Source: a virus (Duplodnaviria > Caudoviricetes). From it: 52,344 bases of DNA. The notes beneath the pieces were generated by a model. The model was not told the origin of the DNA. It did no database searches and was given only the letters and a program-made list of their open reading frames with translations. The stretch is taken from positions 1-52,344 of IMG/VR virus record IMGVR_UViG_3300038988_000082. One strand, 5' to 3'. Position numbers and translations under genes: made by a program. Every line of letters starts with the position of its first letter. The first letter of the stretch is position 1. Shown one piece after another: positions 4,483 through 42,043 of this stretch.

Positions 4483-4510
4483 TAGGTTATTGAAAGGAGA
4501 AAAGTAAAAA

Positions 4511-5302
4511 ATGAAAGCAAGTTGTTGTGATTCTTTAGAGAGAAAAGGTAGAGTCTATTGGTTTATTAGGAGGGTAATTCAATTTATCCGATATCTGCCG
4601 TGCAGGTTCAAAAAGTCAAATATGCAATCTTGGGCTGAGCGAGAGGTTGAAATTGCCTGCAACTACGAAAATCCCGATAGAAAAAAAGGCGAGTTCGATT
4701 ACGGATGCTGCTGTTATGAAAGCGCGCTGAAGGCCTTCAAGAGTCTTTGTGAAGATGGTCATAGCGGGTTTAGTATTAAGATGACCCAGCATATTTTGAA
4801 CCGCCTTCTGGACGGAAAACCCCTCACTCCTATCGAAGATACCCCGGATGTTTGGAATGACTGCATTGTCAAGCAAGACGACTATATTTGCTATCAGAAC
4901 AGCCGAATGAGCTCTTTGTTCAAGTACGTATATTCTGATGGGCGCATACGGTACAGTAACGTTGATCAGTATTACTGTATTGACATTAACAATCCCGACA
5001 GCGCGTACACAACTGGCCTTGTGTCAAGAATAATTGAGGAATTGTTCCCGATCACAATGCCTTACTATCCAGGCGGGCCGATTAAGGTCTATTGCGAGGA
5101 TTTCTTGACAGACCTGAAGAATGGTGATTACGACACCAAAGGCATATTTTATGCCATTAAGCCGGACGGCGAACGGGTCGAGATCAACCGGTTCTTCAAA
5201 GAGCCGGAAACATCTGGAAAGGGTAATTTCTTTGCACAATGGGACGAGATTACCAAAGAGGAATATGAGGCGAGGAAAGCCTCAAAAATAGAAAGGAGAT
5301 AA
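4511..5302 (+). CDS. Hypothetical phage protein
   Basis: Strong GAAAGGAG RBS; 263 aa (alternative start 4622). Confidence 0.8.
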   Translation: MKASCCDSLERKGRVYWFIRRVIQFIRYLPCRFKKSNMQSWAEREVEIACNYENPDRKKGEFDYGCCCYESALKAFKSLCEDGHSGFSIKMTQHILNRLLDGKPLTPIEDTPDVWNDCIVKQDDYICYQNSRMSSLFKYVYSDGRIRYSNVDQYYCIDINNPDSAYTTGLVSRIIEELFPITMPYYPGGPIKVYCEDFLTDLKNGDYDTKGIFYAIKPDGERVEINRFFKEPETSGKGNFFAQWDEITKEEYEARKASKIERR

Positions 5303-7275: not shown

Positions 7276-7805
7276 TAGAAGTAAATACAAGTCCATTTAT
7301 TGATAATTGCCAGGATTATACAAACTATATCATTGAGCATAAAAATAATGTGATTGCCGCGTTTGAACAAATACGACCAAAAATTGAAGCGATGCTTCCG
7401 AGTCTAATACCGGCCTTAGAAAAAATTATATCTGAACATGATAAATCCAAATGGTTGCCCGATGAGTATGATGCCTATGCGGACCATTTTTATCGTGGAA
7501 CCGGGACTCAAAAAGAATTTGATCGAGCGTGGCTTCTTCATATTCATAGAAATCCGCACCACTGGCAACATTGGTTGCTAAAAGAAGATAATGGAAATAC
7601 AAAGGCCCTGGATATGCCATTCATATACATTATAGAGATGATATGTGATTGGCATTCGTTTTCGGCTAAGAAGCCCGAATCTACCGCTTTCAACTGGTTT
7701 AAAGATAATAAATACAAAATGGTTTTGTCAGAGCAAACCGAGAATGACGTAACATATTTTGTGCAGTTTCTTAGAGACCCATTATTGAAAGGAGATAAAA
7801 AATGA
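7272..7805 (+). CDS. HD-like metal-dependent phosphohydrolase (DUF5662-type)
   Basis: HK..V, EHDKSK, WLLHIHRNPHHWQHW, DMP...EMICDW motif set. Confidence 0.7.
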   Translation: MIEVNTSPFIDNCQDYTNYIIEHKNNVIAAFEQIRPKIEAMLPSLIPALEKIISEHDKSKWLPDEYDAYADHFYRGTGTQKEFDRAWLLHIHRNPHHWQHWLLKEDNGNTKALDMPFIYIIEMICDWHSFSAKKPESTAFNWFKDNKYKMVLSEQTENDVTYFVQFLRDPLLKGDKK

Positions 7806-8842
7806 AGTGTTTTTACCATGCGGATGCTGATGGCCGGTGTGCTGGATTCTGGGTACTCGCAAAAGGCGTATTTGAAGGCGATGAGCTTGGTTATTTCATT
7901 GAAATCAACTATGGCAAGCCGTTTCCTCTAGACATCATCCAGCCAAATGAAGTGGTCTATATTGTAGACTATTCAATTGAACCGGAAGAAATGATTGAGC
8001 TGCTAAAAATCACTCAAAACGTGATATGGATTGACCACCACAAAACAGCCATTGAGAAGTATGCCGATTTTCCGTATCGTGTCAAAGGCCTCCGTAAGGA
8101 CGGCATTGCTGGGTGTATGCTCACATATTGTTTTCTAAATATTATGTGTGACAGCACTGGCGAGATTATTCGACCTTTTGATATGTGGATGACGGATTCT
8201 GCCCCAATGTTTACCAAGCTTATTGCAGATTGGGATGTGTGGAAGTTTGAGTTTGGAGATGATACGCGTAATTTCATCACAGCCTTCAATGCGTACGACT
8301 TTGCTCCTAATAGTAATAACTGGGAAAATTTTATTAACCGTGTTGATGAGGACCCGAATCGCAACATGTATAACGATCATTATACAATGGAACTTATTCA
8401 TCAAGGCGCAATAATGCGGTTATATCGTGATCATTGGGCAAAGGAATACTGTCGTACAAAAGGGTTTGAAGTTGAACTTGAGGGGTATAAGGCGTACGCT
8501 CTAAATCTCGGGCTCTGTAATAGCGAATATTTTAAGAGCATTGAGTACAAAGAGTACGATATTCTCATGCCTTTCTGCTTTGATGGAAAACTCTGGGTAT
8601 TCAGTTTATATTCAAAGACCATCGATGTATCTGAGATTGCAAAACGATATGGTGGCGGCGGTCATCGTGGCGCTGCTGGATTTCAGATGGATTATTTACC
8701 ATCGTTTGTTGACGAGCGTTTGACGCGTTATGAAAGGTTTTGCGGATTTGATTTAGCGTCTGGACCAGCTCCGGAATTTATGAAAAAAGAATTTATTATT
8801 CCCGTAAAAAATGACGAGGAATTGAAAAAACCTCAAGGTTAG
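7802..8842 (+). CDS. DHH/DHHA1 phosphoesterase (nanoRNase-like)
   Basis: YHADADG, IVDYS, WIDHHKT and GGGGHRGAAGF motifs. Confidence 0.88.
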   Translation: MKCFYHADADGRCAGFWVLAKGVFEGDELGYFIEINYGKPFPLDIIQPNEVVYIVDYSIEPEEMIELLKITQNVIWIDHHKTAIEKYADFPYRVKGLRKDGIAGCMLTYCFLNIMCDSTGEIIRPFDMWMTDSAPMFTKLIADWDVWKFEFGDDTRNFITAFNAYDFAPNSNNWENFINRVDEDPNRNMYNDHYTMELIHQGAIMRLYRDHWAKEYCRTKGFEVELEGYKAYALNLGLCNSEYFKSIEYKEYDILMPFCFDGKLWVFSLYSKTIDVSEIAKRYGGGGHRGAAGFQMDYLPSFVDERLTRYERFCGFDLASGPAPEFMKKEFIIPVKNDEELKKPQG

Positions 8843-8844
8843 GT

Positions 8845-9138
8845 CTGCCCATTTTGTGTTTAGAAAGTGGGCATATTTGGGTATTTTGCCCGGTTTTGTT
8901 TAAAGTAGTTGTGAGGACGGTGGTGATTTCTCATAAAAATTCACTCAAAACCGGGTTTTCTGCCCACTTTTATGGCCAAAAAGCCCACTTTTAAAAGTGA
9001 AAGTGGGCACGAAAAATGGCTTTAAATAGGGCAAAAACGGCATTTTAGCCCACTTGCCCACTTTATTTCTCAATTAATTGTGATAAAAAAATTAATAATA
9101 TATAATAGTATCTCAAAAAAAGTGGGTTTTTGGGCAGA
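8845..9138. repeat. Cluster of GCCCACTT/AAGTGGGC direct and inverted repeats with AT-rich tract; probable replication origin
   Basis: GCCCACTT at 8962, 8983, 9048, 9056; reverse copies at ~8865, 9001, ~9120; variants at 8847, 8888; AT-rich 9064-9120. Confidence 0.7.
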
Positions 9139-9442: not shown

Positions 9443-9470
9443 ATTTTTGCTAAAAAGGGGGTTATGTAAC

Positions 9471-9791
9471 ATGCTAGAGAGTAAATTCAAGACTAAGTTG
9501 TGTAAGGAACTAAAAACCATGTTTCCTGGTTGCATGATCCTTCATGGAGATGCAAATAAGATTCAAGGAGTTCCTGACCTACTTATTCTCTATAAGAAAC
9601 GGTGGGCGTCGTTAGAAGGAAAACAATCCAAAGATGCTCCTGCTCAACCAAACCAACCGTACTATGTGGATAAGATGAACAAAATGTCATTTTCTCGGTT
9701 CATATATCCGGAGAATAAAAAGGAGGTATTAGATGAACTTCAACAAGCATTCAGACCTCGAAGGGCAGCACGCCTTCCTAGGGGCGAGTAA
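9471..9791 (+). CDS. VRR-NUC family nuclease (Holliday junction resolvase-like)
   Basis: MLESKF..., QGVPDLL, SLEGK, QPNQ pattern. Confidence 0.78.
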   Translation: MLESKFKTKLCKELKTMFPGCMILHGDANKIQGVPDLLILYKKRWASLEGKQSKDAPAQPNQPYYVDKMNKMSFSRFIYPENKKEVLDELQQAFRPRRAARLPRGE

Positions 9792-10290
9792 ATATCATTG
9801 GGTGAACTATGACGAAGCAAAAGTTATAGAATCATTTTCAAGGTTTATGGCTGCTCAAAGAGGCACCGAATTACATGCTTTTGCTGCTATTTGTATAAGA
9901 TTAGGTCAAAAGTTACCTAAGTGTAAAAAAACATTAAATATGTATGTCAATGATGCAATAGGGTTCAAGATGAGACCCGAGCAGATTCTATATTACTCGG
10001 ATAATTGTTTTGGAACTGCCGACACTATATCTTTTAGAAATGATCTTCTTCGTATTCACGATTTTAAGAGTGGTGTTACACCAACTAAAATGGAGCAGCT
10101 TAAAATATATGATGCTCTCTTTTGTTTGGAGTATCGTATCAAACCATCTGAAATTGATCATGAATTACGGATATATCAATCTGATGAGGTATTGTATCAT
10201 AAGCCGACACCAGATGAAATTATGGCAATTTGTGACAAAATTGTATTGTTTGATAAGATCATAACTAAGATTAGAGCAGAGGAGGAATGA
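9733..10290 (+). CDS. PD-(D/E)XK (Cas4/RecB-like) nuclease
   Basis: GTELH, FGTADTI, IHDFKSG and QLKIY motifs; AAGGAGG RBS. Confidence 0.75.
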   Translation: MNFNKHSDLEGQHAFLGASKYHWVNYDEAKVIESFSRFMAAQRGTELHAFAAICIRLGQKLPKCKKTLNMYVNDAIGFKMRPEQILYYSDNCFGTADTISFRNDLLRIHDFKSGVTPTKMEQLKIYDALFCLEYRIKPSEIDHELRIYQSDEVLYHKPTPDEIMAICDKIVLFDKIITKIRAEEE

Positions 10291-13019
10291 CCATGGATTT
10301 TATCGAGGACGACATTTTAGCCCATTATGGAATGAAGTATCGGTCTGGTCGATATCCTTGGGGTTCCGGAGATCATCCGTATCAACATAGTGGAGATTTT
10401 CTTAGCAGAGTTGAAGAACTCTCTAAAAATGGCATAAGCCAAGTTGAGTTGGCAAAACAAATGGGTATGACCACGACCGAGTTGCGCATGCAGCTTCGAG
10501 TCGCTAAGCACGAACGTAAGAACCTTGATGCCGATCGGGCGCAGTCTCTTAGAGATGATGGAAAGAGTTATAATAAGATAGCAAAAATTTTGGGGTACAA
10601 GAATGAGTCTTCTATTCGGTCTCTTTTAAATGAAAATTCGCAAGCTAACCGTAATAAGGCTAGAGTTACTGCGGATATTCTTAAAAATGAGATAGAGAAG
10701 AAGGGCATGCTCGATGTTGGCGTTGGCGTTGAAAGACAGCTTGGGGTTTCGCCTGGTGTTCTCCAGGAAGCTTTATTTATTCTTCGAACAGAAGGATATG
10801 AAGTGTATGGAATAGGCATTCAACAAGTGAATAACCCTGGAAAGCAATCAAATACCGCAGCTCTCTGTATGCCCGGAACCACATATAAACAAGCTTATGA
10901 AAAACTCAATGCTGGTGATCTTGAATCTGTCGGGGACTATCATTCTAGAGATGGTGGGAAGTCTTTTGATAAAAGAGAATACCCTTCAAGCATAGACTCA
11001 AGTCGTGTTGGCATTCGGTATGGCGATGAAGGCGGATCGTTAAAAGATGGTGTGATTGAAATAAGGCGTGGCGTACCAGATTTAGATTTAGGTAACTCTC
11101 ATTATGCACAAGTTCGTATATTGGTTGATGGAACCCATTATCTCAAAGGAATGGCTATGTATTCGGATGATATTCCTGATGGTGTGGATATTATGTTCAA
11201 TACCAATAAGAAAACCGGTACTCCTAAAACCGATGTCATGAAGCCTATAGGAAAGGATCCTGATAATCCGTTTGGAGCTTATATTAAAGCTGATGGTCAG
11301 AGTAAATATGATGACCCAAATGGAAAATATATTGATCCTGTTACTGGAAAGAAGCAGTCGCTTTCGGCTATTAATAAACTGAAAGAAGAAGGCGATTGGG
11401 ATTCAATGGCTCGAAACTTGTCTTCTCAGTTCTTATCTAAGCAGCCTATGAAGCTGATAAAGACTCAACTAGATTTGACATATGCCGATGCACAAGCAAC
11501 GTATGATGAAATAAAAAATCTAAATAATCCAACAGTTAAACGGAAAATGCTTATTGACTTTGCTGATGGGTGCGATGCAGCAGCCGTTCATTTGAAAGCG
11601 GCCTCACTCCCTCGTCAAAGAACACAAGTTATTTTACCAATAACCTCTATGAAGGAAAATGAAGTTTACGCTCCGAACTTTAAAGATGGAGAAACGGTAG
11701 CGTTAGTTCGATATCCTCATGGTGGAACATTTGAAATACCGGTGTTAACAGTTAATAATAAGAACAAGGGTGCTCAGAGTATTCTTGGTAAAAACATTAA
11801 GGATGCTATAGGCATCAATTCTAAGGTAGCTGAAAGGCTCTCTGGTGCCGACTTTGATGGGGATCAAGTAGCGGTTATACCAATTAATGATAAGGTTAGG
11901 ATTAAATCCACACCGCCTTTGAAGGCTCTTGTAGGGTTTAACGCTAAAGATCAATATGCTATTCCTGAGGGAAATCCCAAGAAGGTTCCAGTTATGACTA
12001 AGGCTAACACCCAGAAACAAATGGGTATGATTTCTAACCTTATAACAGACATGACCCTTAAGGGTGCCCCTGAAAGCGAGATAGCTAGAGCGGTTAAGCA
12101 TAGTATGGTCGTCATTGACGCAGCTAAGCATAAACTCGACTATAAGCAATCAGAGAAGGACAATGGTATTGCGGCACTTAAGAAGACCTATCAAGGGTAC
12201 ATTAAGGATGATGGTACAGAAGCCGGTGGTGCTTCAACCCTTCTTTCAAGAAGAAAGCAAACAATTGCTGTACCTGAACGACAAGGTAGTGGCCGAATTG
12301 ATAAGGAGACAGGTAAGGTGGTTTATAACACATCAGGTAGAACCTATGTGGATAAGACTGGAAAAAGAGTCCCCGCCACAACAAAAGTACATCTGATTAA
12401 TCAAGTAGACGATGTCCGGTCCTTGTCATCAGGAACACCCCAAGAAAACGCTTATGCTGATTATGCAAACAAAATGAAAGCGTTAGCCAATCAAGCTAGA
12501 AAAGAGTACATGACTACAGGTCGATTAGTGGCCTCTAGTAGTGCGAAGGAAACCTATAAGGCGGAGGTTGCTAAACTAAACGCCGACTTAAACATTGCGC
12601 TCATGAACGCCCCCCGTGAAAGGAAGGCTCAAGCCATAGCTAACTCCGTAGTAAAGGCAAAAAAACAAGATAACCCCGCTATGGATAAAGAGGAACAAAG
12701 AAAAGTTGGTCGTCAGGCACTGTATGATGCAAGGCATGCTGTTGGAGCCAGTGGTAAAGAAACACGCATCACCATTACCGATAGACAATGGGAAGCTATC
12801 CAGGCTGGAGCTATTACAGATACCAAGCTTACTCAGATCCTACGCTATACAGACCCTGATGTTATCAAGCAGCTAGCAACACCAAGAACAAGCACCCAAC
12901 TTTCTACAGCTAAAGCTAATAAGCTTAAGACTATGAAAGCATCCGGGTACTATACAAATGAAGAGATCGCCCAGTCTTTGGGTGTATCAGTATCAACAGT
13001 TAATAATTACAAGGGCTGA
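10287..13019 (+). CDS. Single-chain two-barrel (DPBB) RNA polymerase-like protein with terminal HTH domains
   Basis: Catalytic-loop motif LSGADFDGD (GADFDGD at 11844-11864), upstream VRYP (RYP at 11709), QVRI...LKG (11109-11150); two N-terminal HTH-like segments and a C-terminal TNEEIAQSLGVSVSTV. Confidence 0.8.
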   Translation: MTMDFIEDDILAHYGMKYRSGRYPWGSGDHPYQHSGDFLSRVEELSKNGISQVELAKQMGMTTTELRMQLRVAKHERKNLDADRAQSLRDDGKSYNKIAKILGYKNESSIRSLLNENSQANRNKARVTADILKNEIEKKGMLDVGVGVERQLGVSPGVLQEALFILRTEGYEVYGIGIQQVNNPGKQSNTAALCMPGTTYKQAYEKLNAGDLESVGDYHSRDGGKSFDKREYPSSIDSSRVGIRYGDEGGSLKDGVIEIRRGVPDLDLGNSHYAQVRILVDGTHYLKGMAMYSDDIPDGVDIMFNTNKKTGTPKTDVMKPIGKDPDNPFGAYIKADGQSKYDDPNGKYIDPVTGKKQSLSAINKLKEEGDWDSMARNLSSQFLSKQPMKLIKTQLDLTYADAQATYDEIKNLNNPTVKRKMLIDFADGCDAAAVHLKAASLPRQRTQVILPITSMKENEVYAPNFKDGETVALVRYPHGGTFEIPVLTVNNKNKGAQSILGKNIKDAIGINSKVAERLSGADFDGDQVAVIPINDKVRIKSTPPLKALVGFNAKDQYAIPEGNPKKVPVMTKANTQKQMGMISNLITDMTLKGAPESEIARAVKHSMVVIDAAKHKLDYKQSEKDNGIAALKKTYQGYIKDDGTEAGGASTLLSRRKQTIAVPERQGSGRIDKETGKVVYNTSGRTYVDKTGKRVPATTKVHLINQVDDVRSLSSGTPQENAYADYANKMKALANQARKEYMTTGRLVASSSAKETYKAEVAKLNADLNIALMNAPRERKAQAIANSVVKAKKQDNPAMDKEEQRKVGRQALYDARHAVGASGKETRITITDRQWEAIQAGAITDTKLTQILRYTDPDVIKQLATPRTSTQLSTAKANKLKTMKASGYYTNEEIAQSLGVSVSTVNNYKG

Positions 13020-13033
13020 AAGGAGGAATAGAT

Positions 13034-13291
13034 GTGGCTAAATGCGCATTATCAACTATTGATAATCCGTTTGATCCTTTTGATCAGTTTGACCAGTGGT
13101 ATAACTTTGATTTAGACCGGGGCTACAGTTCTTGTTCCTTCTTAGATCGAGTTGCAAGAACTTCTGATCAACTTTCAGAAGAAGAAAACGATGCAGAAAT
13201 TGAAAGAGCAATTGATGAAATTGTTAAGTATGACTTTCAAAACATCTACATCAAAGTAAAACAAAAGACAGAAGAATCAATTGATGTTTAA
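13034..13291 (+). CDS. Acidic hypothetical protein
   Basis: AGGAGG RBS, GTG start, 85 aa. Confidence 0.75.
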   Translation: MAKCALSTIDNPFDPFDQFDQWYNFDLDRGYSSCSFLDRVARTSDQLSEEENDAEIERAIDEIVKYDFQNIYIKVKQKTEESIDV

Positions 13292-13467
13292 TAAAACAAA
13301 GTTTAAAGACAATTAAATACTATAAAGTATAATTGTCACGGCGCAATAGCTTTTAATTCTAAGAAAGGACAAATGTAAGTATGAATAAATATTGTTTTTT
13401 AAATAATTTTGTTCAAAGTCTTACAGATCGTTCTCACTAATTACCATCATAAGTTATTAACGGGATA

Positions 13468-13548
13468 TAGGGGGGTCGCAAAAAAAAGCACCCCCTCCTG
13501 TCATCGCCGGCCCCCTAAAAAATTCCCCGGGGGTATATTTTTTAAAAA
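13468..13548. other. Candidate genome terminus / packaging (cos/pac) region
   Basis: Alternating G/C and A/T runs (GGGGGGTCGCAAAAAAAAGCACCCCCT...AAAAAATTCCCCGGGGG) in the largest intergenic gap, upstream of the packaging genes. Confidence 0.45.
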
Positions 13549-13564
13549 CAATCCACTATTCGTA

Positions 13565-13676
13565 TGACTTTTAAGCGGGCTTGGGGAGGGTTCGGGCGGT
13601 AGCATAAACAAAGCTTTTTACTTTTTCTCCTTTCAATAAAAGAGGCAGTCAACTTTCCAGGCCTGTTTAAAAGTTA
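13565..13676 (+). ncRNA. Long hairpin RNA with anti-RBS loop
   Basis: 24 contiguous pairs (13565-13588 with 13653-13676), 6 of them G-U; loop contains TTTTTACTTTTTCTCCTTTCAATAA. Confidence 0.6.
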
Positions 13677-13749
13677 AACAAAACTGTGGTCGAAGTATGT
13701 CAAAACTATACTAAAAGTTATTAGCAATAATTAATGAGGAGGGAAGAAC

Positions 13750-14328
13750 ATGTCAAAAAATCTAGATCAAATAGACCTCTTATATTTAATGAGTAAAATA
13801 AAATCTATGTTATACCCCGTAGGAACAATATATATGACAACAGAAAACATAAACCCTGCAGAAATGTTTGGCGGAACCTGGGTAGCATGGGGATCGGGCA
13901 GAGTTCCGGTCGGCGTGGATACTAGTCAAACCGAATTTAATACGGTTGAAAAAACCGGAGGGCATAAAGCCACAGAACAACATACCCATGTTCAGAATAG
14001 TCATACACATTCTCAGAATAGTCATAGTCATGGTGATAATTTTTCAGTTGCTACTGGAGGCGCACATACTCATAATGTTAAATGGAGGGACGGTGCTGCA
14101 TCTGGCAGTTTATATTTTTTACGCCGTGATGACCCGTCGGATAGTTATAACGGTACAAACGCCGCTGCGATGAGCGGAGGGTCTCATAGTCATACACTAA
14201 ACGGGTCGGTATCTTCTGCAACCGCCACAAATAATTCGACAACCGCCACAAATCAAGACTTTGGAACAGGTAATGCTGGCAACCTCCAACCGTTTATAAC
14301 TTGTTATATGTGGAAAAGGACAGCTTAA
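13750..14328 (+). CDS. Baseplate/tail-fibre-tip-like protein (T4 gp10/gp12 C-terminal-like) with HxH motifs
   Basis: YPVGTIY...NPAEMFGGTW...GRVPVGVD...TGG, repeated HTH/HSH tripeptides, NLQPFITCYMWKRTA. Confidence 0.75.
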   Translation: MSKNLDQIDLLYLMSKIKSMLYPVGTIYMTTENINPAEMFGGTWVAWGSGRVPVGVDTSQTEFNTVEKTGGHKATEQHTHVQNSHTHSQNSHSHGDNFSVATGGAHTHNVKWRDGAASGSLYFLRRDDPSDSYNGTNAAAMSGGSHSHTLNGSVSSATATNNSTTATNQDFGTGNAGNLQPFITCYMWKRTA

Positions 14329-14351
14329 AATTTCGAAAGGAGTCGGTAAAG

Positions 14352-14693
14352 ATGAAAAGAGTTAAAGCAACGGATCGTCCCGAATCTTCGCAAAAGATGA
14401 GACCAGCTTTGACTCCTGAAGCTGATGAAAATCAGTTGATATCACTAGCCACAAATCTCGCTAGAAAGCAACTGATGAATGGGACGGCCTCCTCACAAGT
14501 CATTACTCATTATTTGAAGCTTGGTTCAACTACCGCTAAGTATGAAAAAGAAGTGTTGATTAACCAAAACAAACTTCTTACAGCAAAGATCGAAGCACTA
14601 CAATCTCAGAAGAGAATTGAGGATCTTTATGCTAATGCTCTAGCAGCTATGAAAAAGTACAGCGGTAACGGGAGTGTTAACGATGAAGATTAG
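14352..14693 (+). CDS. Putative terminase small subunit / packaging-region protein
   Basis: Position at start of packaging module, helical protein; GAAAGGAG RBS. Confidence 0.5.
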   Translation: MKRVKATDRPESSQKMRPALTPEADENQLISLATNLARKQLMNGTASSQVITHYLKLGSTTAKYEKEVLINQNKLLTAKIEALQSQKRIEDLYANALAAMKKYSGNGSVNDED

Positions 14694-15099
14694 GACATAT
14701 TCTGAACTGAGAAGATTTCGAACATTTGAGGATCGTTATGAGTATCTTCGGCTTCAAGGAAAAGTTGGGGAGTCGACATTTGGATTTGATAGGATATTTA
14801 ATCAGATGTTCTACAAATCTGGGGAATGGTTGGCGCTTCGAGATGATGTAATCATAAGGGATAATGGTTGCGATCTTGGAATTAAAGGACGAGAGATTCA
14901 AAAGGGACTTTTTATTCATCATATGAATCCGATTTCAATTGAGGATATAAAGTCTCATAGTGATTGGCTCTTAAACCCTGATTTTTTGATCACTACAATC
15001 CTTTCGACCCATAACGCAATCCACTATGGAAACAAAGATCTACTGGTTCTCGATCCAATTGTGAGAACCAGAAATGATACATGCCCATGGAAACACTAA
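14683..15099 (+). CDS. HNH endonuclease (packaging-associated)
   Basis: W..LR..VIIRDNGCDLG...IHHMNP...LIT....THNAIH. Confidence 0.82.
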   Translation: MKIRTYSELRRFRTFEDRYEYLRLQGKVGESTFGFDRIFNQMFYKSGEWLALRDDVIIRDNGCDLGIKGREIQKGLFIHHMNPISIEDIKSHSDWLLNPDFLITTILSTHNAIHYGNKDLLVLDPIVRTRNDTCPWKH

Positions 15100-16849: not shown

Positions 16850-18595
16850 ATGGCGCTATCGAATACAGCCGTTCCTAAATATTACGGCCAATTTCGAGAC
16901 GCCGTAATTAGAGGAGAGATCCCAGTATGCCGAGAGATTTCTATGGAGATGAATCGCATAGATGATCTCATAGCCAATCCGGGAATATACTATGATGATG
17001 AAGCAGTCGAAGGTTGGATAGCTTTCTGTGAAAATGAAATGACTCTTACTGACGGCGCAGATCTTCAATTGCTAGATTCATTTAAACTTTGGGGCGAAGA
17101 AATTTTTGGTTGGTATTATTTTGTCGAACGAAGCGTATACGAACCAAACGAAAGTGGTCGTGGTGGACATTACGTCCGCAAAACGGTTAAGCGAAGACTT
17201 GTAAACAAGCAGTATTTAATTGTTGGAAGAGGCGCGGCAAAATCACTCTACGATTCATGCATTCAAGCATACTTTGAGAATGTGGATACTTCCACAACTC
17301 ATCAAATCACAACTGCACCAACAATGAAGCAAGCCGAAGAAGTTCTCTCACCTATTCGTACTGCTATCACACGATCTCGTGGACCGCTTTTTCAGTTTCT
17401 TACAGAAGGCTCTTTGCAGAACACGACAGGTTCAAAGGCTAATCGTGTTAAGCTGGCCTCAACAAAGAAAGGTATCGAAAACTTTCTTACCGGATCTCTG
17501 ATAGAGATAAGACCTATGAGCATCCACAAGCTTCAGGGTCTTAGACCAAAGGTAGCGACAGTTGACGAGTGGCTTTCCGGAGATATCAGAGAGGATGTAA
17601 TAGGAGCCATTGAGCAAGGCGCCTCGAAGGTGGATGACTACTTGATCATTGCAACTAGTTCGGAAGGTACTGTCCGGAATGGTAGTGGTGATACAATCAA
17701 AATGGAGTTGTCAGACATCCTTAAGGGTGAATACCCAAATCCTCACGTGTCGATTTTCTGGTACAAACTTGATTCGGTTGATGAAGTAGCCGATCCAGAC
17801 ATGTGGCTTAAGGCTCAACCGAACCTTGGAAAGACCGTTAGCTATGAAACGTATCAACTGGATGTTGAAAGAGCTGAGAAAGCTCCTGCAGCCAGGAATG
17901 ATATTCTTGCAAAACGGTTTGGTATCCCAATGGAAGGGTATACCTATTACTTCACATATGAGGAAACGCTTCCACATCGCAAACGAGATTTCTGGAAGAT
18001 GCCATGTGCGCTAGGTGCAGACCTTTCACAAGGTGATGACTTTTGCTCATTTACTTTCTTGTTCCCATTACGTAGCGGGAGTTTCGGCGTAAAGACTCGA
18101 AATTATATTTCTGAGTCAACACTTATGAAATTACCAGCTGCGATGAGGATGAAGTATGATCAATTTATAGACGAAGGAAGTTTAATCGTTCTTGATGGAA
18201 CAGTATTAGATATGATGGTCGTTTATGAAGATCTGGATAAGCACATTACCGAGAGCGAATATGATGTCCGATGCTTTGGGTTTGACCCATATAACGCCAA
18301 GGAATTTGTCGCACGTTGGGAATCTGAAAATGGTCCATTTGGTATAGAGAAGGTTATCCAAGGAACAAAGACAGAATCTGTACCTTTAGGTGAACTCAAA
18401 AAGTTGGCCGAAGAACGGATGCTGATATTTGATGAGGAACTCATGGCCTTTACTATGGGAAACTGTATCACCATGGAAGATACCAACGGAAATAGGAAGC
18501 TCCTTAAGAGGCGGTATGAGCATAAAATTGATGCTGTAGCGGCTATGATGGACGCCTATATTGCATATAAACTCAATAAGGATGCTTTTGAATAA
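16850..18595 (+). CDS. terL: Terminase large subunit
   Basis: VGRGAAKS Walker A, ATVDEW Walker B, nuclease GADLS...FDPYN...KIDAVAA; precedes portal. Confidence 0.92.
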   Translation: MALSNTAVPKYYGQFRDAVIRGEIPVCREISMEMNRIDDLIANPGIYYDDEAVEGWIAFCENEMTLTDGADLQLLDSFKLWGEEIFGWYYFVERSVYEPNESGRGGHYVRKTVKRRLVNKQYLIVGRGAAKSLYDSCIQAYFENVDTSTTHQITTAPTMKQAEEVLSPIRTAITRSRGPLFQFLTEGSLQNTTGSKANRVKLASTKKGIENFLTGSLIEIRPMSIHKLQGLRPKVATVDEWLSGDIREDVIGAIEQGASKVDDYLIIATSSEGTVRNGSGDTIKMELSDILKGEYPNPHVSIFWYKLDSVDEVADPDMWLKAQPNLGKTVSYETYQLDVERAEKAPAARNDILAKRFGIPMEGYTYYFTYEETLPHRKRDFWKMPCALGADLSQGDDFCSFTFLFPLRSGSFGVKTRNYISESTLMKLPAAMRMKYDQFIDEGSLIVLDGTVLDMMVVYEDLDKHITESEYDVRCFGFDPYNAKEFVARWESENGPFGIEKVIQGTKTESVPLGELKKLAEERMLIFDEELMAFTMGNCITMEDTNGNRKLLKRRYEHKIDAVAAMMDAYIAYKLNKDAFE

Positions 18596-23057: not shown

Positions 23058-23111
23058 AAAGGATAGGGGTCGTATTCAGTAAAGGCTGGCGGCCCCAGGT
23101 CCTTTATTTTT
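23058..23111 (+). terminator. Hairpin/terminator after major tail gene
   Basis: AAAGGA..GGGGTCG...CGGCCCC..TCCTTT followed by a T tract. Confidence 0.55.
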
Positions 23112-23128
23112 GAAAGGAGAAAAAAAAG

Positions 23129-23527
23129 ATGCTTAAAAAGACAATCAAGTATACCGATTATAACGGTACAAAACGTGAAGAGGACTTTTATTTCAACCTG
23201 TCCAAGGCAGAGATCTTGGAAATGGAGATGACGACAAGCGGCGGGCTCGCTGAAATGATCAAAGGCATTGTTGCCGCGCAGGATATTCCGGCAATAATAA
23301 AGATCTTCAAAGATCTGGTCCTGAAAGCGTATGGCATTAAGAGCCCGGATGGAAAACAGTTTGTTAAGAGTCAGGAAATCCGGGATGCGTTTGCCAGCAC
23401 TGAAGCATATTCCAATTTGTTTATGGAGCTGGCTACAGATGCGAATGCCGCGGCGGATTTTGTGAATGGAATAATTCCAGCAAACATGGGCGATAACAAG
23501 CCGACGATCGTTCCGCCCGCTACCTAA
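23129..23527 (+). CDS. Tail assembly chaperone
   Basis: Position after tail tube; YTDYNG...FYFNLSKAE. Confidence 0.75.
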   Translation: MLKKTIKYTDYNGTKREEDFYFNLSKAEILEMEMTTSGGLAEMIKGIVAAQDIPAIIKIFKDLVLKAYGIKSPDGKQFVKSQEIRDAFASTEAYSNLFMELATDANAAADFVNGIIPANMGDNKPTIVPPAT

Positions 23528-24680: not shown

Positions 24681-25058
24681 ATGATAAGCTTTAAACAAAG
24701 TGGAGACTTCTCCAAGACTATACAGTTCCTTGGTAAGACACAAAAAGCACTCAGCCTTATGGATCTGAACAAGTTTGGTCAAGAAGGAGTGGCTGCTCTT
24801 GCATCCGCAACGCCAATAGATTCAAGTCGTACGGCTAATTCCTGGTACTATGAAATTACCAGGGGTCCTGGATCGGTAACCATTACTTGGTTAAACTCAA
24901 ATGTTCAAAATGGAGTTCCAATTGCAGTTATACTACAGTATGGGCATGGGACTCGAAATGGTGGGTATGTGGAGGGGAGAGATTATATCAATCCAGCTCT
25001 CAGACCCGTATTTGATAAGATTGCAGAATCTGCGTGGAAGGAGGTTACCAGAGTATGA
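24681..25058 (+). CDS. Neck/tail completion protein (HK97 gp10-like)
   Basis: TP.DS.RTANSW, QYGHGT, YINPAL. Confidence 0.7.
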   Translation: MISFKQSGDFSKTIQFLGKTQKALSLMDLNKFGQEGVAALASATPIDSSRTANSWYYEITRGPGSVTITWLNSNVQNGVPIAVILQYGHGTRNGGYVEGRDYINPALRPVFDKIAESAWKEVTRV

Positions 25059-28000
25059 GCAACACAATTGACCAAAAAGTTGTAGAGATGAAGTTTGACA
25101 ATAAACAGTTTGAAACTAATGTCCAGACTTCCCTATCGAGCATCGACAAATTAAAGAAAAGTTTAGATATGAAGGGTGTTTCTAAAGGACTGGAGGGAGT
25201 TAGCGAAGCTTCTAAAAAGATTGATATGACCGGTCTTGGAAATGCTGTCGAGACAGTAAAGGCTAGATTTTCAGCTTTAGAGGTAATGGCTGTAACCGCT
25301 CTGGTTAACATTACAAATTCGGCTATTAATGCCGGAAAACGAATGATTTCCTCGCTTACAATAGATCCGATTAAGACAGGTCTCAACGAATACGAGACAA
25401 AGCTTAATTCAATTCAAACAATACTTGCTAACACCCAAAAGGAAGGTACAAACCTTGCTACGGTTACCAAAGCATTGGATGAATTAAACACCTATTCAGA
25501 TAAGACAATTTATAACTTCCAGGAAATGGCTCAAAATATTGGTACCTTTACAGCAGCTGGTGTAGCGTTAGACACTTCAGTTGATGCTATTAAGGGTATC
25601 GCCAACCTGGCGGCTATTTCAGGCTCGAACGCTCAGCAGGCCTCTACGGCCATGTATCAACTCTCCCAGGCACTTGCTACTGGCACGGTCAAACTTATGG
25701 ACTGGAACTCGGTAGTTAATGCTGGTATGGGCGGTCAGGTATTTCAAGACTCGCTTATGGAGACGGCAAGAGTTCATGGTGTAGCCATTGATGATATAAT
25801 AAAGAAAAATGGGTCTTTTAGAGACTCATTACAGGAAGGATGGCTTACTTCTAGCATTCTTACTGAAACGTTGTCAAAATTTACTGGCGATCTTACTGCA
25901 GATCAGCTCAAATCCATGGGCTATACTGAAGAGCAGATTGCCGGAATTATTAAACTTGGGCAAACCGCAAGCGATGCTGCTACCAAGGTCAAGACTTTTT
26001 CTCAGTTGATCAATACTCTTCAGGAAGCTGCTCAATCAGGTTGGGCTCAGAGCTGGGAGATCATAATTGGTAACTTCGAGGAAGCCAAGGTCTTATTTAC
26101 CGATATCAATAACGTTATTGGTGGGTGGATTGGCGCTTCTGCGCAAGCTCGAAATGAAGTACTTCAGGGATGGAAAGATCTTGGCGGTCGCACAGCAGTT
26201 ATTGATGCTATCCGAAATATGTTTGAGGGTTTAATAGCCATTATCAAACCTGTTAAGGAAGCGTTTTCTGAGATATTTCCGCCCATGACCGCTGAACGAC
26301 TAGCTGCTTTAAGCGAAGGCCTTAAGCAGTTTACTGAAAAATTAAAACCAACTCAAAAGACAGTTGATAATCTAAAATCGGCGTTTAAAGGCCTATTTGC
26401 CTTTCTTGATATTATCAGGATGGCGTTTGTAGCCATATTTGATCTTATCAAACCTCTATTCAGTGGATTAGGAATGCTTTCTGGTGGTGTCTTAGGAGTG
26501 TCTGCCTCTTTTGGGGATTGGATGGTTAAGCTCCGTGATGCTATTAAAAATGGTGAGATATTTGGTAAAGTTGTTGAAGGCATTCATAACTTTGTCAAGG
26601 CTGTCGGAACAGCTATCAAAAAATTTATTGATAGTATTAAAGAGAAGTTTGACTTTGATGGGCTCAAAGCATTTCATACTTTTCTTGAAAATATGCATGA
26701 ACGTATGGCTCAGATTGGAGGAGCCGCTACAAGTATGGGCGAGTTAATCGTCAACACAATAGCCTATATTGGTGAAGCCATGGCTAATAGTAAGTTCTTA
26801 GTCGGTCTTCAGAAATTGTGGGAAGGAATCAAAGCTATTGGCAGTGCTATAGCAAAGTTCCTTGGCGACATATTTGGCGGACTCTTTGATAAGCTTGGAA
26901 ATGGTGATTTCAGTGGAGTATTTGATTTAATAAACAGCGCTGCCTTAACTACAATAACAGTTATGATTGCAAAATTCATAAAAGGATTTAAAGATGTTGT
27001 CGAGACTGTTGGTAGTATAAAAGACAGTGTTGTTGGAATATTAAATCAGGTAAAGGATTGCTTCAAAGCCTATCAGGAACAACTGAAAGCTGGAACTTTG
27101 CTAAAGATTGCTACGGCAATTGGTATATTAGCAGCTTCCATTTTAGTTATATCCTTGATCGATAGCGAAAAATTAGCCGGAGCTATTGCGGCGCTAAGTG
27201 TCTTATTTGTTGAACTGTTAACTGCTATGAATTTCTTTAGTAAAATAGATAAGACATCGAAGGGCACACTTAAAGCAACGGTCGCAATGACGGTAATGGC
27301 GGTATCTATTCTTATTCTAGCAACCGCTTTAAAGAAGATTGGAGAACTTGAATTTGGTCAACTAATGACTGGGTTAGTCGGGGTTGCAGGTTTAGCGGCT
27401 ATAATGGTGGCAACTGCAAAACTATTATCTAGTGAAGAGAAAACCATTCTCAAGGGCGCAACCCAAATGGTTATATTTGCCACGGCAATTCTAATCTTAG
27501 GTGAAGCATGCAAAAATCTTGCGGAACTTAGCTGGGAAGAATTAGCCAAAGGCGTATCCGGTGTTCTTGTTTTAGCAGGAATTATGGTAGCAACGGCTAA
27601 GTTGGTTGATGGAGAAGAAAAGGCAATCATTAAAGGCGCTGCTAATATGGTTATATTTGGCGCTGCACTTGCAATTCTTGCAGCGGTGTGTAAAAGTCTT
27701 GCTGAACTTAGTTGGGAAGAATTGGCTAAGGGCATGCTTGGCGTACTAGCCCTTGCTGGAACCATGGTAGCCGTAGCGAAACTCGTTTCTGGTGAATCTC
27801 AAGCCATGATTAAGGGCGCAACTCAAATGGTTATATTTGCTGCGGCTCTCGCGATTTTAGCAGCGGTATGCCAGGATTTAGCCGCCTTAAGTTGGGAAGA
27901 ATTATTAAAGGGTCTTGCTGGTGTTGCTGGCTTAATGGTAATTCTGGTTGCCGGCCTTAAGACAATGCCAAAAGATTTAACAAAAATGGGGGTTCAACTT

Positions 28001-31000
28001 CTTGTTGTTTCCGCAGCATTGTTGGTCATGTCAAAAGCTCTTAAAGAACTTGGCGACATGGGTTGGGAATCAATTGCAAAGGGCTTAATAGCTCTTGGCG
28101 GAGCAATGGCTATATTAGTTATAGGCCTGAACAAGATGGAAGGAACCGCAAAAGGGGCTGCGGCACTATTATTAGCGGCTGCTGCTCTTGGAATATTGGT
28201 TCCTGTTATGAGTATTTTAGGCGCAATGAGTTGGGAAGCAATTGCAAAGGGTCTTGTTGTTCTCGCTGGCGCCTTTACTGTTATGGGCGTAGCTGGTAAG
28301 CTTTTAGAACCATTAATCCCTGCAATATTAGGACTTAGTGGAGCATTTTCTCTTCTAGGTGTTGGCGTTGCATTGATAGGTGCTGGTTTACTAGCTATAG
28401 GACTTGGCATATCAGCACTTGTTGCAGCATTAGGAGCTTTGGTTGCTATTGGAGCTGCTGGTGCGGTTACAATTGTAGGAGCCTTAGGAATTATAGTTAG
28501 GGGCATTGCCGACCTTATCCCTTATATTCTAAAAAGAATAGGGGAAGGAATTTTAGAGCTCTGCAAGGTTATTGCGGACGGTGCCCCAGCTATAGCAGAG
28601 GCATTTAAGGCAGTAGTAACAGCTCTTGTTGATGTATTGGTGGAATCTATTCCTATGCTTGTAGAAGGCGTATTGGTAATGATAACATCAGTATTAACAT
28701 CACTTGTTGAGCATACCCCCGAGATAGTTGATAAGGTATTTCAATTCCTTATTGGCGTTCTTGAAGGAATAGCCAGGAATTTACCAGGCTTAATCAAAGC
28801 TGCGGTAGATGTGCTCATGTCATTCTTAACGGGATTTATTGATGCTTTGAAATCTATTGATCCTAACATCTTGATAGATGGTATTGCAGCAATAGGATTT
28901 ATGGCCGCGTTGATGGTTGCCTTAGCAGCTTTAGCTCTCTTGGCTCCAGCGGCGATTGTAGGCGTTTTAGCATTTGGTGCCGTTATAGCAGAATTGGCAT
29001 TAGTGTTAGCTGCAGTAGGTGCATTGGCCCAGATACCTGGATTAACTTGGCTTATTAACGAGGGTGGAAAGCTGTTAGGTGCTATTGGTAATGCTATAGG
29101 TTCACTTATTGGTGGAATAATTGGCGGAGCAATGGCCCAAATTTCAGCACAATTTCCACAAATCGGATCTGATCTTTCGCAGTTTATGATCAATGTCCAG
29201 CCTTTCCTTGATGGGGCTAAAAGTATTAATCCGTCTATGTTGGATGGGGTTAACGCGTTAGTTGGAACCATTATGCTTTTAACCGGAGCAAACATGCTTA
29301 ACGGAATTTCAAAATGGTTTACCGGAGGAGCCTCATTTGTAGACTTTGGTAAGGAATTAGTTGAGTTTGGTAAGAGCATGAGTCAGTATTCGGATACTGT
29401 AAAGAATGTAAAACCGGATATCGTTTCTGCTTCTGCAAATGCTGCAAGAGCCATGTCCGAAGTCGCAAACAACCTTCCAAAGAAAGGTGGGGTTGTAAGT
29501 TGGTTTGAAGGTGAAAACAGTTTATCTGTCTTTGCTGAAGAACTTGCGGCTTTCGGTCCGGTTATATCCGCATATTCCGATAGCGTTAAAAACGTTAAGC
29601 CCGATGTGGTTTCCGCATCTGCAAATGCTGCAAAGGCTATGTCCGAAATGGCTGAGAATCTACCGAAACGCGGTGGAGTTATAAGCTGGTTTGAAGGCGA
29701 GAATAGCTTGACAGATTTTGCGACGGAATTAGCCGCTTTCGGTCCAGTCATATCTGCATATTCTGATAGTGTTAAGAATGTCAAACCCGACGTTGTGCAA
29801 GCCTCGGCAAGTGCAGCATTGGCTATTGCTGAAATGGCTGATAAGTTGCCTAATCAAGGTGGCGTAGTTAGCTGGTTTGCTGGCGATAATACATTATCGA
29901 TGTTTGCAGAAGAAATGGCTAAATTTGGACCGGCTATGCAAGCATATTCTGACTCAGTTGCAAATGTAAAACCGGAGACAGTTACTGCCTCGGCAACAGC
30001 CGCACAAGCATTGGCCGAATTAGCAAACAACCTTCCAAATCAAGGAGGCGTTGTTAGCTGGTTTACTGGCGATAACAAATTAAGTGCCTTCGGTGATAAC
30101 CTTGTTGTCTTTGGCGACAGTATGAAGAAGTTCGGCGAGGCTGTTTCTGGAATTGAAGGCTATAGCGAGTCTATTACAGCTTCTGTAACAGCAGCGACGG
30201 CCCTTGCAGAGATGCAGGCTTCTCTTGAAAACATTGGAGGGGTTGTTAGCTGGTTTGCAGGAGAAAAAGACCTCGCAAGTTTCGGAGCAAGTTTAGTGCC
30301 ATTTGGCCAGGGGCTTAAAGATTATAGCATAGCAGTTAGTGGTTTCTTGGCTAATGAGGATGCTGTAACCGCTTCTGTAGCAGCTGCTGTTGCATTGGGT
30401 AGCATGTACTCATCGCTACCAAATGTCAAGGGGGTTGCTCAATGGTTTGCTGGTGCTCCAGATTTGAGCGGATTCGCAACTTCTTTACCTGATTTCGGTA
30501 AAGGAATGAAGTCCTATAGTGAGAGCGTTAACGGTTTCTTAGCCAATGCTGACGCAGTTACCGCTTCAGTTGATGCTGCCGTGGCTTTAGGAGGAATGTA
30601 TTCAGTCCTTCCAAAAGTTGGAGGTATAGCTAAATTCTTTGCTGGTGAGGTTGATCTTACCGGCTTTGCAACTGCTCTTCCTGAATTTGGTAAGGGTATG
30701 AAGGCCTATAGTGAGAGCGTTAACGGTTTCTTAGCCAATGCCGATGCCGTAACGGCTTCTGTTACTGCGGCTACTGCTCTAGGCGGTATGTATTCCTCTT
30801 TGCCAAATATTAAAGGTATAGCCCAGTGGTTTGCAGGTGCCCCAGACCTTACAGGGTTTGCAAGTGGGTTACCCACATTGGGCGAAAGCTTAAAGACCTA
30901 TAGTGAAAAGGTCGAGGGTATGTCCGATAACACGGCTTCCATTACGGCTTCCATCAATGCTGCAAAAGCAATTGCAGAAATGCAAGGTTCCCTTGAGCAG

Positions 31001-39028: not shown

Positions 39029-39069
39029 CAAGGGCTCTTTCTTTCGCGAAAAAAACATGATGTATAATG
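39020..39069 (+). repeat. Cassette junction: terminator hairpin plus promoter motif
   Basis: GAGCCTTAACAAGGGCTCTTTCTTT then CGCG AAAAAA ACA TGATGTATA ATG. Confidence 0.8.
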
Positions 39070-39137
39070 AAGAATAGCTCAGATGGGAGAGCACTAGCAT
39101 AGTCTAGAGGTCAAGGGTTCAAGTCCCTTTTCTTTTT
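39068..39137 (+). tRNA. tRNA-like RNA with shortened anticodon arm (pseudo-tRNA or mimic)
   Basis: D arm TAGCTCAGATGGGAGAGCA, T arm AAGGG-TTCAAGT-CCCTT, acceptor GAAGAA/TTCTTT; anticodon arm CTAG-CATAGT-CTAG is 14 nt rather than 17; no CCA. Confidence 0.65.
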
Positions 39138-39158
39138 ATTTTTGAAAGGAGAATTATT

Positions 39159-41218: not shown

Positions 41219-41245
41219 TAAGTTTTGTTGAAAGGAGAAAAGTAT

Positions 41246-42043
41246 ATGGGAGGGCTTCTTGGTAAACTAAGTTTATATTTGAAGCGGCATTCACCAACTA
41301 TCTTAACTTGTGTCGGGGCGTTAGGAGTTGTCGGTACGGCTGTATTAGCCGTAAAGGCTACACCAAAGGCTATTCGAATGATTGAGGCAGCAGAAGTTGA
41401 GAAAAGCATACGGCTTGGGCAAGGTAGTGAAAGCACTGCTGGTAAGTTAACAAAGAAAGAGGTTGTGAAAACGGTTTGGAAATGCTATATTCCAGCTACT
41501 GCTGTGGGCTTAGGTACTATATTTTGCGTCCTTAGTGCACATATGCTCAACCAAAAGCGGCAGTCATCTATAATGAGCGCATATTTACTTGTAGACTCAG
41601 CTTATAAAGAATATAGGAGTAAAGTCAAAGAACTATATGGAGAAGAAGCAGACGTTCGGGTAGAAAAGGCTATAATGGAGGAGCGATACCAAAAATTCCG
41701 TGAAGAACATATGGAAACTAATCCTGCATACGGTGAGACTCAATTATTTTATGAAGAAAATCATCGGCATTTCTTTCATAGCACTAAAGAGCAGGTTTTA
41801 AATGCTGAACATCATATTAATGAGATTCTAAACATTACCGGTCATGCGAGTCTCAAAGAGTTTCATATTATGTTAGGACTAGACAGCCCAGATCAGGGCC
41901 TGGGATGGAATCTTGATTACGTTGATGATGGATTTTATGGTAATAGCTCTTGGATAGACTTTAGCCATGAGGATATTGTTCTTGAAGATGGTTTAGAATG
42001 TACCATTATAACCATTGAAACACCACTTAAGATGATCTACTAA
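41246..42043 (+). CDS. DUF6353-like protein, paralog 1
   Basis: HSPTILT.VG..G...TAVLAVKATP...KCYIP; GAAAGGAG RBS before ATG 41246. Confidence 0.75.
   Translation: MGGLLGKLSLYLKRHSPTILTCVGALGVVGTAVLAVKATPKAIRMIEAAEVEKSIRLGQGSESTAGKLTKKEVVKTVWKCYIPATAVGLGTIFCVLSAHMLNQKRQSSIMSAYLLVDSAYKEYRSKVKELYGEEADVRVEKAIMEERYQKFREEHMETNPAYGETQLFYEENHRHFFHSTKEQVLNAEHHINEILNITGHASLKEFHIMLGLDSPDQGLGWNLDYVDDGFYGNSSWIDFSHEDIVLEDGLECTIITIETPLKMIY

Follow-up and report, generated by a model that had tools for sequence, protein, structure and literature searches.

Immediately upstream of the packaging and structural genes of an uncultured phage lies a long inverted repeat (positions 13565-13676), which raises the question of whether it acts as DNA or as RNA, and on which target. 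The stretch analysed here, referred to as the window, is an entire IMG/VR virus record of 52,344 bp, estimated to be 85% complete, with all long reading frames on the + strand. The sequence-only reading of the locus had proposed a trans-acting small RNA, made at the onset of late transcription, that would shut off early or host translation by blocking GAAAGGAG-class ribosome-binding sites (RBSs), with a packaging-related RNA as an alternative.

Upstream of the repeat are genes for an exonuclease (9733-10290), a 910-aa YonO-like polymerase (phrog_4291, 10287-13019) and an 85-aa phrog_4303 protein (13034-13291). The first gene after it encodes a tail-collar-like protein (13750-14328, +; RBS GAGGAGGG at 13736-13743) and is followed by a phrog_4259 gene (14301-14693, +), an HNH endonuclease (14674-15099) and the large terminase, TerL (16850-18595), so the position first assigned to the hairpin, ahead of the packaging and structural genes, holds. 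The 910-aa protein shares 55.6% identity with the "putative RNA polymerase" of Faecalibacterium phage FP_oengus and about 36-50% with proteins of 250 phage records, mostly from Arthrobacter, Gordonia, Streptomyces and Lactococcus hosts. Proteins of this type are argued to be YonO/RdRP-like polymerases in the accessible part of the preprint that defines the Actinobacteria-Firmicutes supercluster (10.1101/842583). In three of four relatives (L019, FP_oengus and Mudcat) the gene directly 3' of the hairpin is phrog_4259, and in the fourth, Lactococcus phage P092, it is phrog_17502; the window is only partly alike, since its tail-collar-like gene lies between the hairpin and phrog_4259. An assignment of phrog_4259 as the small terminase is not established, the protein having no Pfam match and no PDB sequence match at E up to 1.

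Three further features of the window are recorded here. A tRNA gene at 39067-39138 (+; Rfam, 44.7 bits) is reported by ARAGORN as "(ta)", tRNA-???, with the anticodon unassigned. Clustered direct and inverted copies of GCCCACTTT that look like iterons or operator sites occupy 8846-9135, in the gap between the reading frames 7802-8842 and 9447-9791. In the tail region, a single reading frame of 2448 aa extends over 25034-32380 (+), and its position suggests a tape-measure or tail protein.

The hairpin and its family

Folding of 13565-13676 (+) with RNAfold gives one long hairpin with a minimum free energy (MFE) of -39.2 kcal/mol (z = -3.73; 1 of 200 shuffles as stable), against only -24.5 kcal/mol for the - strand. 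The basal helix, made by a 5' arm (13565-13588) and a 3' arm (13653-13676), comprises 24 pairs, 18 of them Watson-Crick and six G-U, with no A-C pair and no other mismatch; the original count, in which all six departures from a perfect inverted repeat were G-U pairs on the + strand, is thus reproduced. By length, the stem ranks second among the 12 inverted repeats of at least 18 nt, with arms within 200 nt, in the whole window. The interior (13589-13652, +) is U/C-rich, nearly devoid of GGAG and different between relatives. Within it, the MFE structure predicts a small sub-hairpin (13613-13646, with 13613-13619 pairing to 13640-13646) whose loop displays the motif described below. The hairpin is taken as more than a chance structure because both structure and motif recur in relatives.

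A blastn comparison of 13000-14400 with the phage collection found nothing, and blastn of 13292-13760 against 43 related loci detected only the cos block (see below) and not the hairpin. The hairpins of relatives were therefore found by structure. The 157 loci examined derive, among the matches listed, from a scan with the 85-aa protein, the FP_oengus locus and a cos-block pattern scan. The cos block is carried by 100 of the 157; 15 of these have fewer than 200 nt beyond the block, and the other 85 were analysed. A long hairpin occurs within 500 nt in 79 of the 85. For three of the six loci without a hairpin in the repeat scan (L107, L142 and L167), the covariance model described below found the element farther off, and in L045, L124 and L162 neither the repeat scan nor the model found one. 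After the addition of five named-phage hairpins and the removal of duplicates and six low scorers, the architecture is represented, among the matches listed, by at least 66 distinct sequences from related phages, with arms of 23-45 bp and widely different sequences. Five of 13 named phages carry a long hairpin with CTCCTT, Rainydai has a long hairpin without CTCCTT, and the other seven lack any long hairpin within their first 1 kb. Given these seven and L045, L124 and L162, the element is dispensable in some lineages. There is also a second kind of long hairpin, with arms of 27-28 bp that include G-U pairs and without CUCCUU, which adjoins the left genome end (Tatanka, L058:37-145; Giantsbane, L057:47-144; Rainydai, L050:46-133); in Tatanka and Giantsbane it lies 5' of the motif-bearing hairpin.

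The composition of the helices reveals the level at which they are maintained. Under symmetric scoring, with an equal penalty for G-U and A-C, the basal helices of the 66 elements contain 1756 Watson-Crick, 228 G-U, 31 A-C and 53 other pairs, and G-U pairs outnumber A-C pairs in 57 elements, are fewer in 2 and equal in 7. This asymmetry indicates an RNA read from the + strand and is not expected if the inverted repeat were maintained as a protein-binding DNA site or as a cruciform. For covariation, 24 of the 66 hairpins, picked by eye for alignable-looking arms (the other 42 being left out), were aligned with MAFFT by sequence only. RNAalifold finds 32 pairs in this alignment, 31 of them changed on both sides. 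The proportion of paired cells is 94.5%, compared with 73.1 +/- 0.9% in shuffles (0 of 500 reach the observed value) and 34-47% after a shift of the partners by 1-3 columns, and the covariation score is 0.766, compared with 0.333 in shuffles. The covariation check across relatives that had been suggested at the outset, run here with MAFFT and RNAalifold, therefore agrees with the G-U excess, and the early claim of selection at the RNA level on the + strand is borne out by both.

A covariance model (R1) built from the 24-hairpin alignment gives a single strong match in the window, at 13560-13681 (+) (63.4 bits, E 8.6e-12). At E up to 0.01 it matches 52 loci in a set of 100 and 37 in a set of 69; many of the loci missed are chance pattern matches or incomplete contigs. 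Where both strands are listed, the presumed gene-sense strand scores much higher (e.g., 111 vs. 44 bits). At E 0.01 the model does not reach FP_oengus, Mudcat, Giantsbane, Tatanka, P092 or CHPC971, whose elements are identified by repeat scan, folds and motif. Helix, strand and position are thus conserved at the RNA level, and the hairpin of the window is very likely a functional, structured + strand RNA element of the late leader.

Rfam 15 (4227 models, including phi29 pRNA, EAR, 6C and RsaE) yields no match at E up to 10 in 13300-13800, which leaves the packaging-RNA alternative without support. At gathering score the whole window contains only a tRNA, and the loci of 15 relatives give no match. 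Nothing on the element was found, by listing and abstract, in openly available full-text literature concerning hairpins with anti-SD sequence in phages, sRNA mimics of phage origin and leader elements cut by RNase III, and the terms "hairpin" and "stem-loop" are absent from the accessible part of the supercluster preprint (10.1101/842583). The hairpins appear to form an undescribed structured RNA family, shared across a large supercluster of phages with hosts in two bacterial phyla. Its location at the head of a long one-way operon of ~25 kb, and its occurrence in phages with a polymerase-like gene as described in that part of the preprint (10.1101/842583), would suit a signal to the transcription machinery, in which the RNA would modify the polymerase of the host or the YonO-like enzyme of the phage itself, either by processive antitermination like put RNA or EAR or as a recognition element for the phage enzyme. 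Such a role is improbable, as no Rfam family of this kind matches, many carriers of the polymerase gene are without the element, and the 16S-tail motif described below would go unexplained.

The cos junction and the late leader

The intergenic region also contains a block that is conserved as DNA. In the blastn search against the 43 related loci, 31 match, and within the intergenic region they do so solely over 13462-13560. The record of Arthrobacter phage Mudcat ends with ...CTGCATCGCCGGCCT and begins with CCCCAAAAAATCCCCGGGGG..., and its joined ends align base for base with 13495-13533 of the window. This alignment of physical ends places, by homology, the putative right end of the packaged DNA of the uncultured window phage at ~13513 and the left end at ~13514. 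The conserved block to the left of the inferred junction (13462-13513, +) includes a G6...C5 inverted repeat (13470-13495) and CATCGCCGGCCC (13502-13513), and the block to the right (13514-13560, +) reads CCTAAAAAATTCCCCGGGGG... In each of the 13 named records sampled, roughly the first 25 nt include an A/T run and, after it, a block resembling CCCCG...GGG or CCTCCGGGGG; the two Lactococcus records begin a few bases farther left and are least alike. In actinobacteriophage records the polymerase gene occupies the extreme right end.

The cos-flanking block as a whole (13462-13560), which carries the G6...C5 inverted repeat and a CCCCGGGGG palindrome, is conserved at the nucleotide level between Arthrobacter phages and the low-GC phage of the window, the proteins being only ~50% identical. 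Four contigs (L011, L018, L032 and L034) stop inside or just past the 5' hairpin arm, 121-141 nt after the start of the cos block, which could reflect an assembly break at the inverted repeat or a drop in coverage near a physical end.

In the window the hairpin begins 51 nt inside the inferred left cos end. In most gut-phage relatives, 10-60 nt separate the cos block from the start of the hairpin; in P092 and CHPC971 the hairpin starts within 40 nt of the first base of the record. In Mudcat, Giantsbane and Tatanka the element is 396-501 nt from the genome end, yet directly 5' of the first operon gene, so it follows the operon leader more than cos. Under a strict rule, a start codon with a Shine-Dalgarno (SD) sequence follows the hairpin in 56 of 66 elements, at a median distance of 53 nt (range 17-157). 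The short distance from the left end in P092, CHPC971 and the gut relatives implies that, unless an unusual promoter is present there, the leader would have to be transcribed across the joined cos, which would tie late expression to circularisation.

The proximity to cos invites a comparison with phage lambda, in which cosB sits between cos and the packaging genes. The hairpin occupies the same interval and in most gut-phage relatives lies within 10-60 nt of the cos block, as would suit a DNA-level packaging signal at which an inverted repeat binds terminase or HNH proteins beside the cos cut. This explanation is very improbable. The excess of G-U over A-C pairs has no counterpart at the DNA level, where conservation would be strand-symmetric; the arms of L019 differ as DNA at 6 of 30 positions, five of the six differences being G-U-compatible; and the element stays directly before the first operon gene in the three phages in which it is 400-500 nt from the end. 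A further DNA-level candidate is provided by phage N4, whose promoter is a template-strand DNA hairpin. It was rejected, as the wobble bias is on the non-template strand for rightward transcription.

The anti-SD motif and candidate targets

The loop of the window hairpin contains CTCCTTTC (13627-13634, +; CUCCUUUC in RNA), which is singled out as an anti-SD mimic by its invariance, its exposure and its match to the 16S tail. CUCCUUUC equals eight contiguous letters of the Gram-positive 16S rRNA 3' tail, which for B. subtilis is given as GAUCACCUCCUUUCU in the accessible text of PMC5732282. The motif is exact in 53 of the 66 elements, with near copies in the remainder, and invariant in all 24 aligned hairpins; the anti-SD loop of the sequence-only reading is therefore kept across the family. 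The probability that the motif is unpaired averages 0.76 (0.31 over the element as a whole). It is above 0.5 in 64 of the 66, in which the trait typical of anti-SD regulators, a single-stranded pyrimidine motif complementary to the SD sequence, is thus predicted. The small stems around the motif differ between relatives, and in many elements the motif forms the 3' side of a loop closed by a short stem of varying sequence. CTCC occurs 115 times in the interiors of the 66 elements (25.9 +/- 5.1 in shuffles), with at least two copies in 29 elements and at least three in 17, and GGAG occurs three times. The element thus seems to display an anti-SD mimic and to avoid SD-like sequence that could mask it. 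The two bases before the motif are T in 65% of elements, and an A follows it in 48%. The letter directly before it is usually U or A, rather than the C of the 16S tail, which is unlike selection for maximal SD pairing and counts against an SD-pairing reading.

On the - strand the same site reads TGAAAGGAGA and resembles an RBS. The annotation of Mudcat includes gp2 (L048:371-568, -), a leftward reading frame overlapping the hairpin in its 5' half, and assigns it exactly this RBS, complementary to the anti-SD motif and 7 nt from the ATG. A real RBS for a small leftward gene is nevertheless next to inconceivable and was ruled out: a start codon lies 4-12 nt after AAGGAG in only 25 of 66 elements, the frames run for 2-38 codons within the element (6 of the 25 continue past its edge without a stop), every other gene lies on the + strand, and the G-U bias marks the + strand. 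Mudcat gp2 is probably an annotation artefact of the motif.

Alternatively, the element may serve processing or stability only, as an RNase III site or a 5' protective hairpin, with the motif as a protein-binding or processing determinant that does not pair with SD sequences. The long helices are under RNA-level selection, the motif-less hairpins of Rainydai, Tatanka and Giantsbane indicate that a helix is valuable on its own, and 5'-end-dependent RNA decay by RNase J operates in both host phyla. This explanation is nonetheless quite unlikely to suffice, because it accounts neither for the exact 8-mer of the 16S tail, nor for its invariance across divergent stems, nor for the near-absence of GGAG from the interior.

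If the motif pairs with SD sequences, the question becomes which ones. The reverse complement of the loop (13615-13639) reads as originally written and matches 4487-4510, directly before the ATG at 4511, except for one A (BLAST: 96% identity, E 5.4e-5; 24 of 25 letters match). The gene at 4511-5302 (+) matches PF25185, the type I Thoeris inhibitor Tad3 (E 7.8e-34), and is a probable anti-defence gene; together with its initiation region (4487-5302, +), it is a candidate trans target in this genome only. With up to one mismatch, GAAAGGAGAAAA has 10 copies in the window, with about one expected, a number that none of 100 shuffles attains. Of these, nine lie on the + strand (1618, 1852, 4492, 5291, 7787, 23112, 41230, 49258 and 51476), mostly just 5' of a called start codon, and the sole - strand copy is the hairpin loop itself. 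Several partial matches to RBSs had been reported: those near 1852, 41228, 1616 and 23110 are recovered among these copies, and those near 39142 and 43819 are merely weaker matches. Separately, an initiation region of ~20 nt (TTGAAAGGAGAAAAGTA-like) is nearly common to several genes (1852-1872, 4487-4513, 23105-23131 and 41225-41248), as if it were a reused cassette.

The long match is not a property of the family. A search of the whole record of each of six relatives with its own element gave, as longest antisense matches, 14 nt, none, none, 17 nt, 18 nt and three of 14 nt. A counterpart of the 24/25 match to 4487-4510 is absent in all six, and in one relative the gene to which the 14-nt match belongs shows no relationship to that at 4511-5302 (protein comparison, E 0.82). 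A specific conserved target was ruled out on these grounds, none of the six relatives having a long match and the genes concerned not being orthologous. The proposed selective shut-off of early genes is likewise without sequence support. The strongest predicted loop duplexes in the window, at about -28 kcal/mol, involve the initiation regions of 41246, 23129 (in the late-gene region) and 4511, and the median energies of predicted loop-RBS pairing are alike for 45 early and 25 late genes (-14.6 and -15.1 kcal/mol, respectively; p = 0.53). An anti-SD mimic is complementary to nearly all RBSs, so complementarity does not identify its target, and the conserved property appears to be the anti-SD core of 8-10 nt, rather than a long or class-specific antisense match.

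These results bear directly on the trans-acting late small RNA of the sequence-only reading. In its favour are the conserved, exposed anti-SD motif, often in 2-4 copies, the complementarity of 24 of 25 loop positions to the initiation region of the Tad3-like gene, the three initiation regions near -28 kcal/mol, and the possibility that RNase III could release the RNA from its helix. Yet the pairing energies of early and late genes are the same, one of the three best sites (23129) is among the late genes, the extended match is missing in 6 of 6 relatives, and bulk titration of RBSs would also strike the phage's own late genes. Nor does the scan provide the RNA with a promoter or terminator of its own: terminator-like sites number 0, and promoter-like sites number 4 against 3.5 expected, none between cos and the hairpin, in a scan that is blind to the phage polymerase's own promoters. 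The scan thus does not define a separate small RNA, and the proposal as first formulated is unlikely.

Proposed mechanism and known systems

The best explanation of the observations as a whole, with about an even chance of being correct, is a structured late-leader RNA that combines a probable RNase III-type helix with an exposed anti-SD mimic pairing with RBSs. From the conserved features we infer that the element is transcribed, that RNase III cleaves it and that its motif pairs with SD sequences, as well as whether it acts in cis or in trans. Among the sequencing runs listed, none of RNA contains the stretch, and five from wastewater or sludge, which may be DNA, share 0.05-0.12 of its sampled words. 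The element would be made from the + strand as part of the late operon's untranslated leader, ahead of the packaging and structural genes, and its nearly perfect basal helix of 23-45 bp would be a natural substrate for RNase III. This enzyme needs roughly two turns of double-stranded RNA, and the helices reach such a length (24 bp for the window hairpin and 23-45 bp across all 66, with 94.5% of aligned cells paired), so excision of the element or trimming of the 5' end of the operon mRNA is likely. The interior would hold one to several copies of CUCCUUUC single-stranded, and pairing of the exposed motif with an SD sequence would lower ribosome loading. The likeliest target is the RBS of the first gene or genes on the same transcript, usually phrog_4259, just 5' of the HNH and terminase genes. 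Through such cis action, the genes next to HNH and terminase would be held down. Once excised, the element may also act in trans elsewhere, in the window for instance on the Tad3-like gene at 4511; the 24/25 match is the sole specific hint of this. We place cis action on the first operon genes slightly ahead of trans action after excision. Should the motif act on SD sites, it would offer phages a simple RNA route to setting the output of packaging genes or retuning translation. The members' hosts include the culturable and harmless Lactococcus lactis, Arthrobacter and Faecalibacterium prausnitzii, which makes the question directly testable.

Parts of the proposed mechanism resemble known systems. 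RNase III hairpins are found in phage polycistronic RNAs, such as the T7 R sites, the lambda N leader and SP82 early RNA, and in lambda N and T7 the processing alters translation of the next gene. Common to these and the present element is a long helix that heads an operon within a phage transcript; in contrast, they have no conserved anti-SD loop, and cleavage here is predicted. The C-rich loops of RsaE/RoxS, of the RNAIII hairpins and of actinobacterial 6C RNA pair with RBSs. Like the phage element, these RNAs present unpaired pyrimidine-rich motifs complementary to SD sequences, often several per RNA, but they are separate transcripts with their own promoter and terminator, and their motif is CCC or UCCC rather than the 8-mer of the 16S tail. 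In phage T4, the RegB endoribonuclease cuts GGAG in early RBSs and is selective for early genes. As a phage device that retunes translation by acting against SD sequences, it is a functional analogue of the mechanism first proposed for the hairpin; however, RegB is a protein nuclease and not an RNA, and its selectivity for early genes is not seen for the hairpin loop.

The ribosome itself offers another parallel. In pre-16S rRNA, the flanks form a long helix, or stalk, around an RNA with ...CUCCUUUC in its 3' part, a few tens of nucleotides before the 3' strand of the stalk, and in the window the motif similarly ends 18 nt before the 3' arm. The interior of the element is only 40-130 nt and has no further likeness to 16S rRNA, so the resemblance may be convergent. 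A bolder and rather doubtful proposal is that the element is a phage-made miniature mimic of the 16S 3' end, cut from the late leader by RNase III to give an abundant small RNA that reprogrammes late translation. Excision would then resemble the release of 16S rRNA from its precursor stalk, with a product that ends in, or displays, the anti-SD tail and either competes with ribosomes for SD sequences or soaks up proteins that read the 16S tail. Such a device would have been kept from Arthrobacter phages to phages of Lactococcus and gut Clostridia, and the leaders of individual accessory genes, in the window that of the Tad3-like anti-defence gene, would have become tuned to it.

A close likeness to the preferred reading, a late-leader RNA with an anti-SD mimic, is provided by the icaR mRNA of S. 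aureus. According to the accessible text of PMC3868564, an anti-SD motif (UCCCCUG) in its 3' UTR pairs with the SD sequence of the same mRNA and blocks the initiation complex, with the involvement of RNase III. Both RNAs carry a pyrimidine-rich anti-SD motif in an untranslated part of an mRNA. In icaR the motif lies in the 3' UTR; the phage motif is in the 5' leader, inside a closed long helix, and copies the 16S tail itself, and the element is phage-borne and conserved across two host phyla, its pairing being predicted. The principle therefore has precedents in the icaR 3' UTR, in small RNAs with C-rich loops and in phage RNase III sites, and the one invariant feature of this family is a copy of the sequence with which the ribosome docks onto mRNA.
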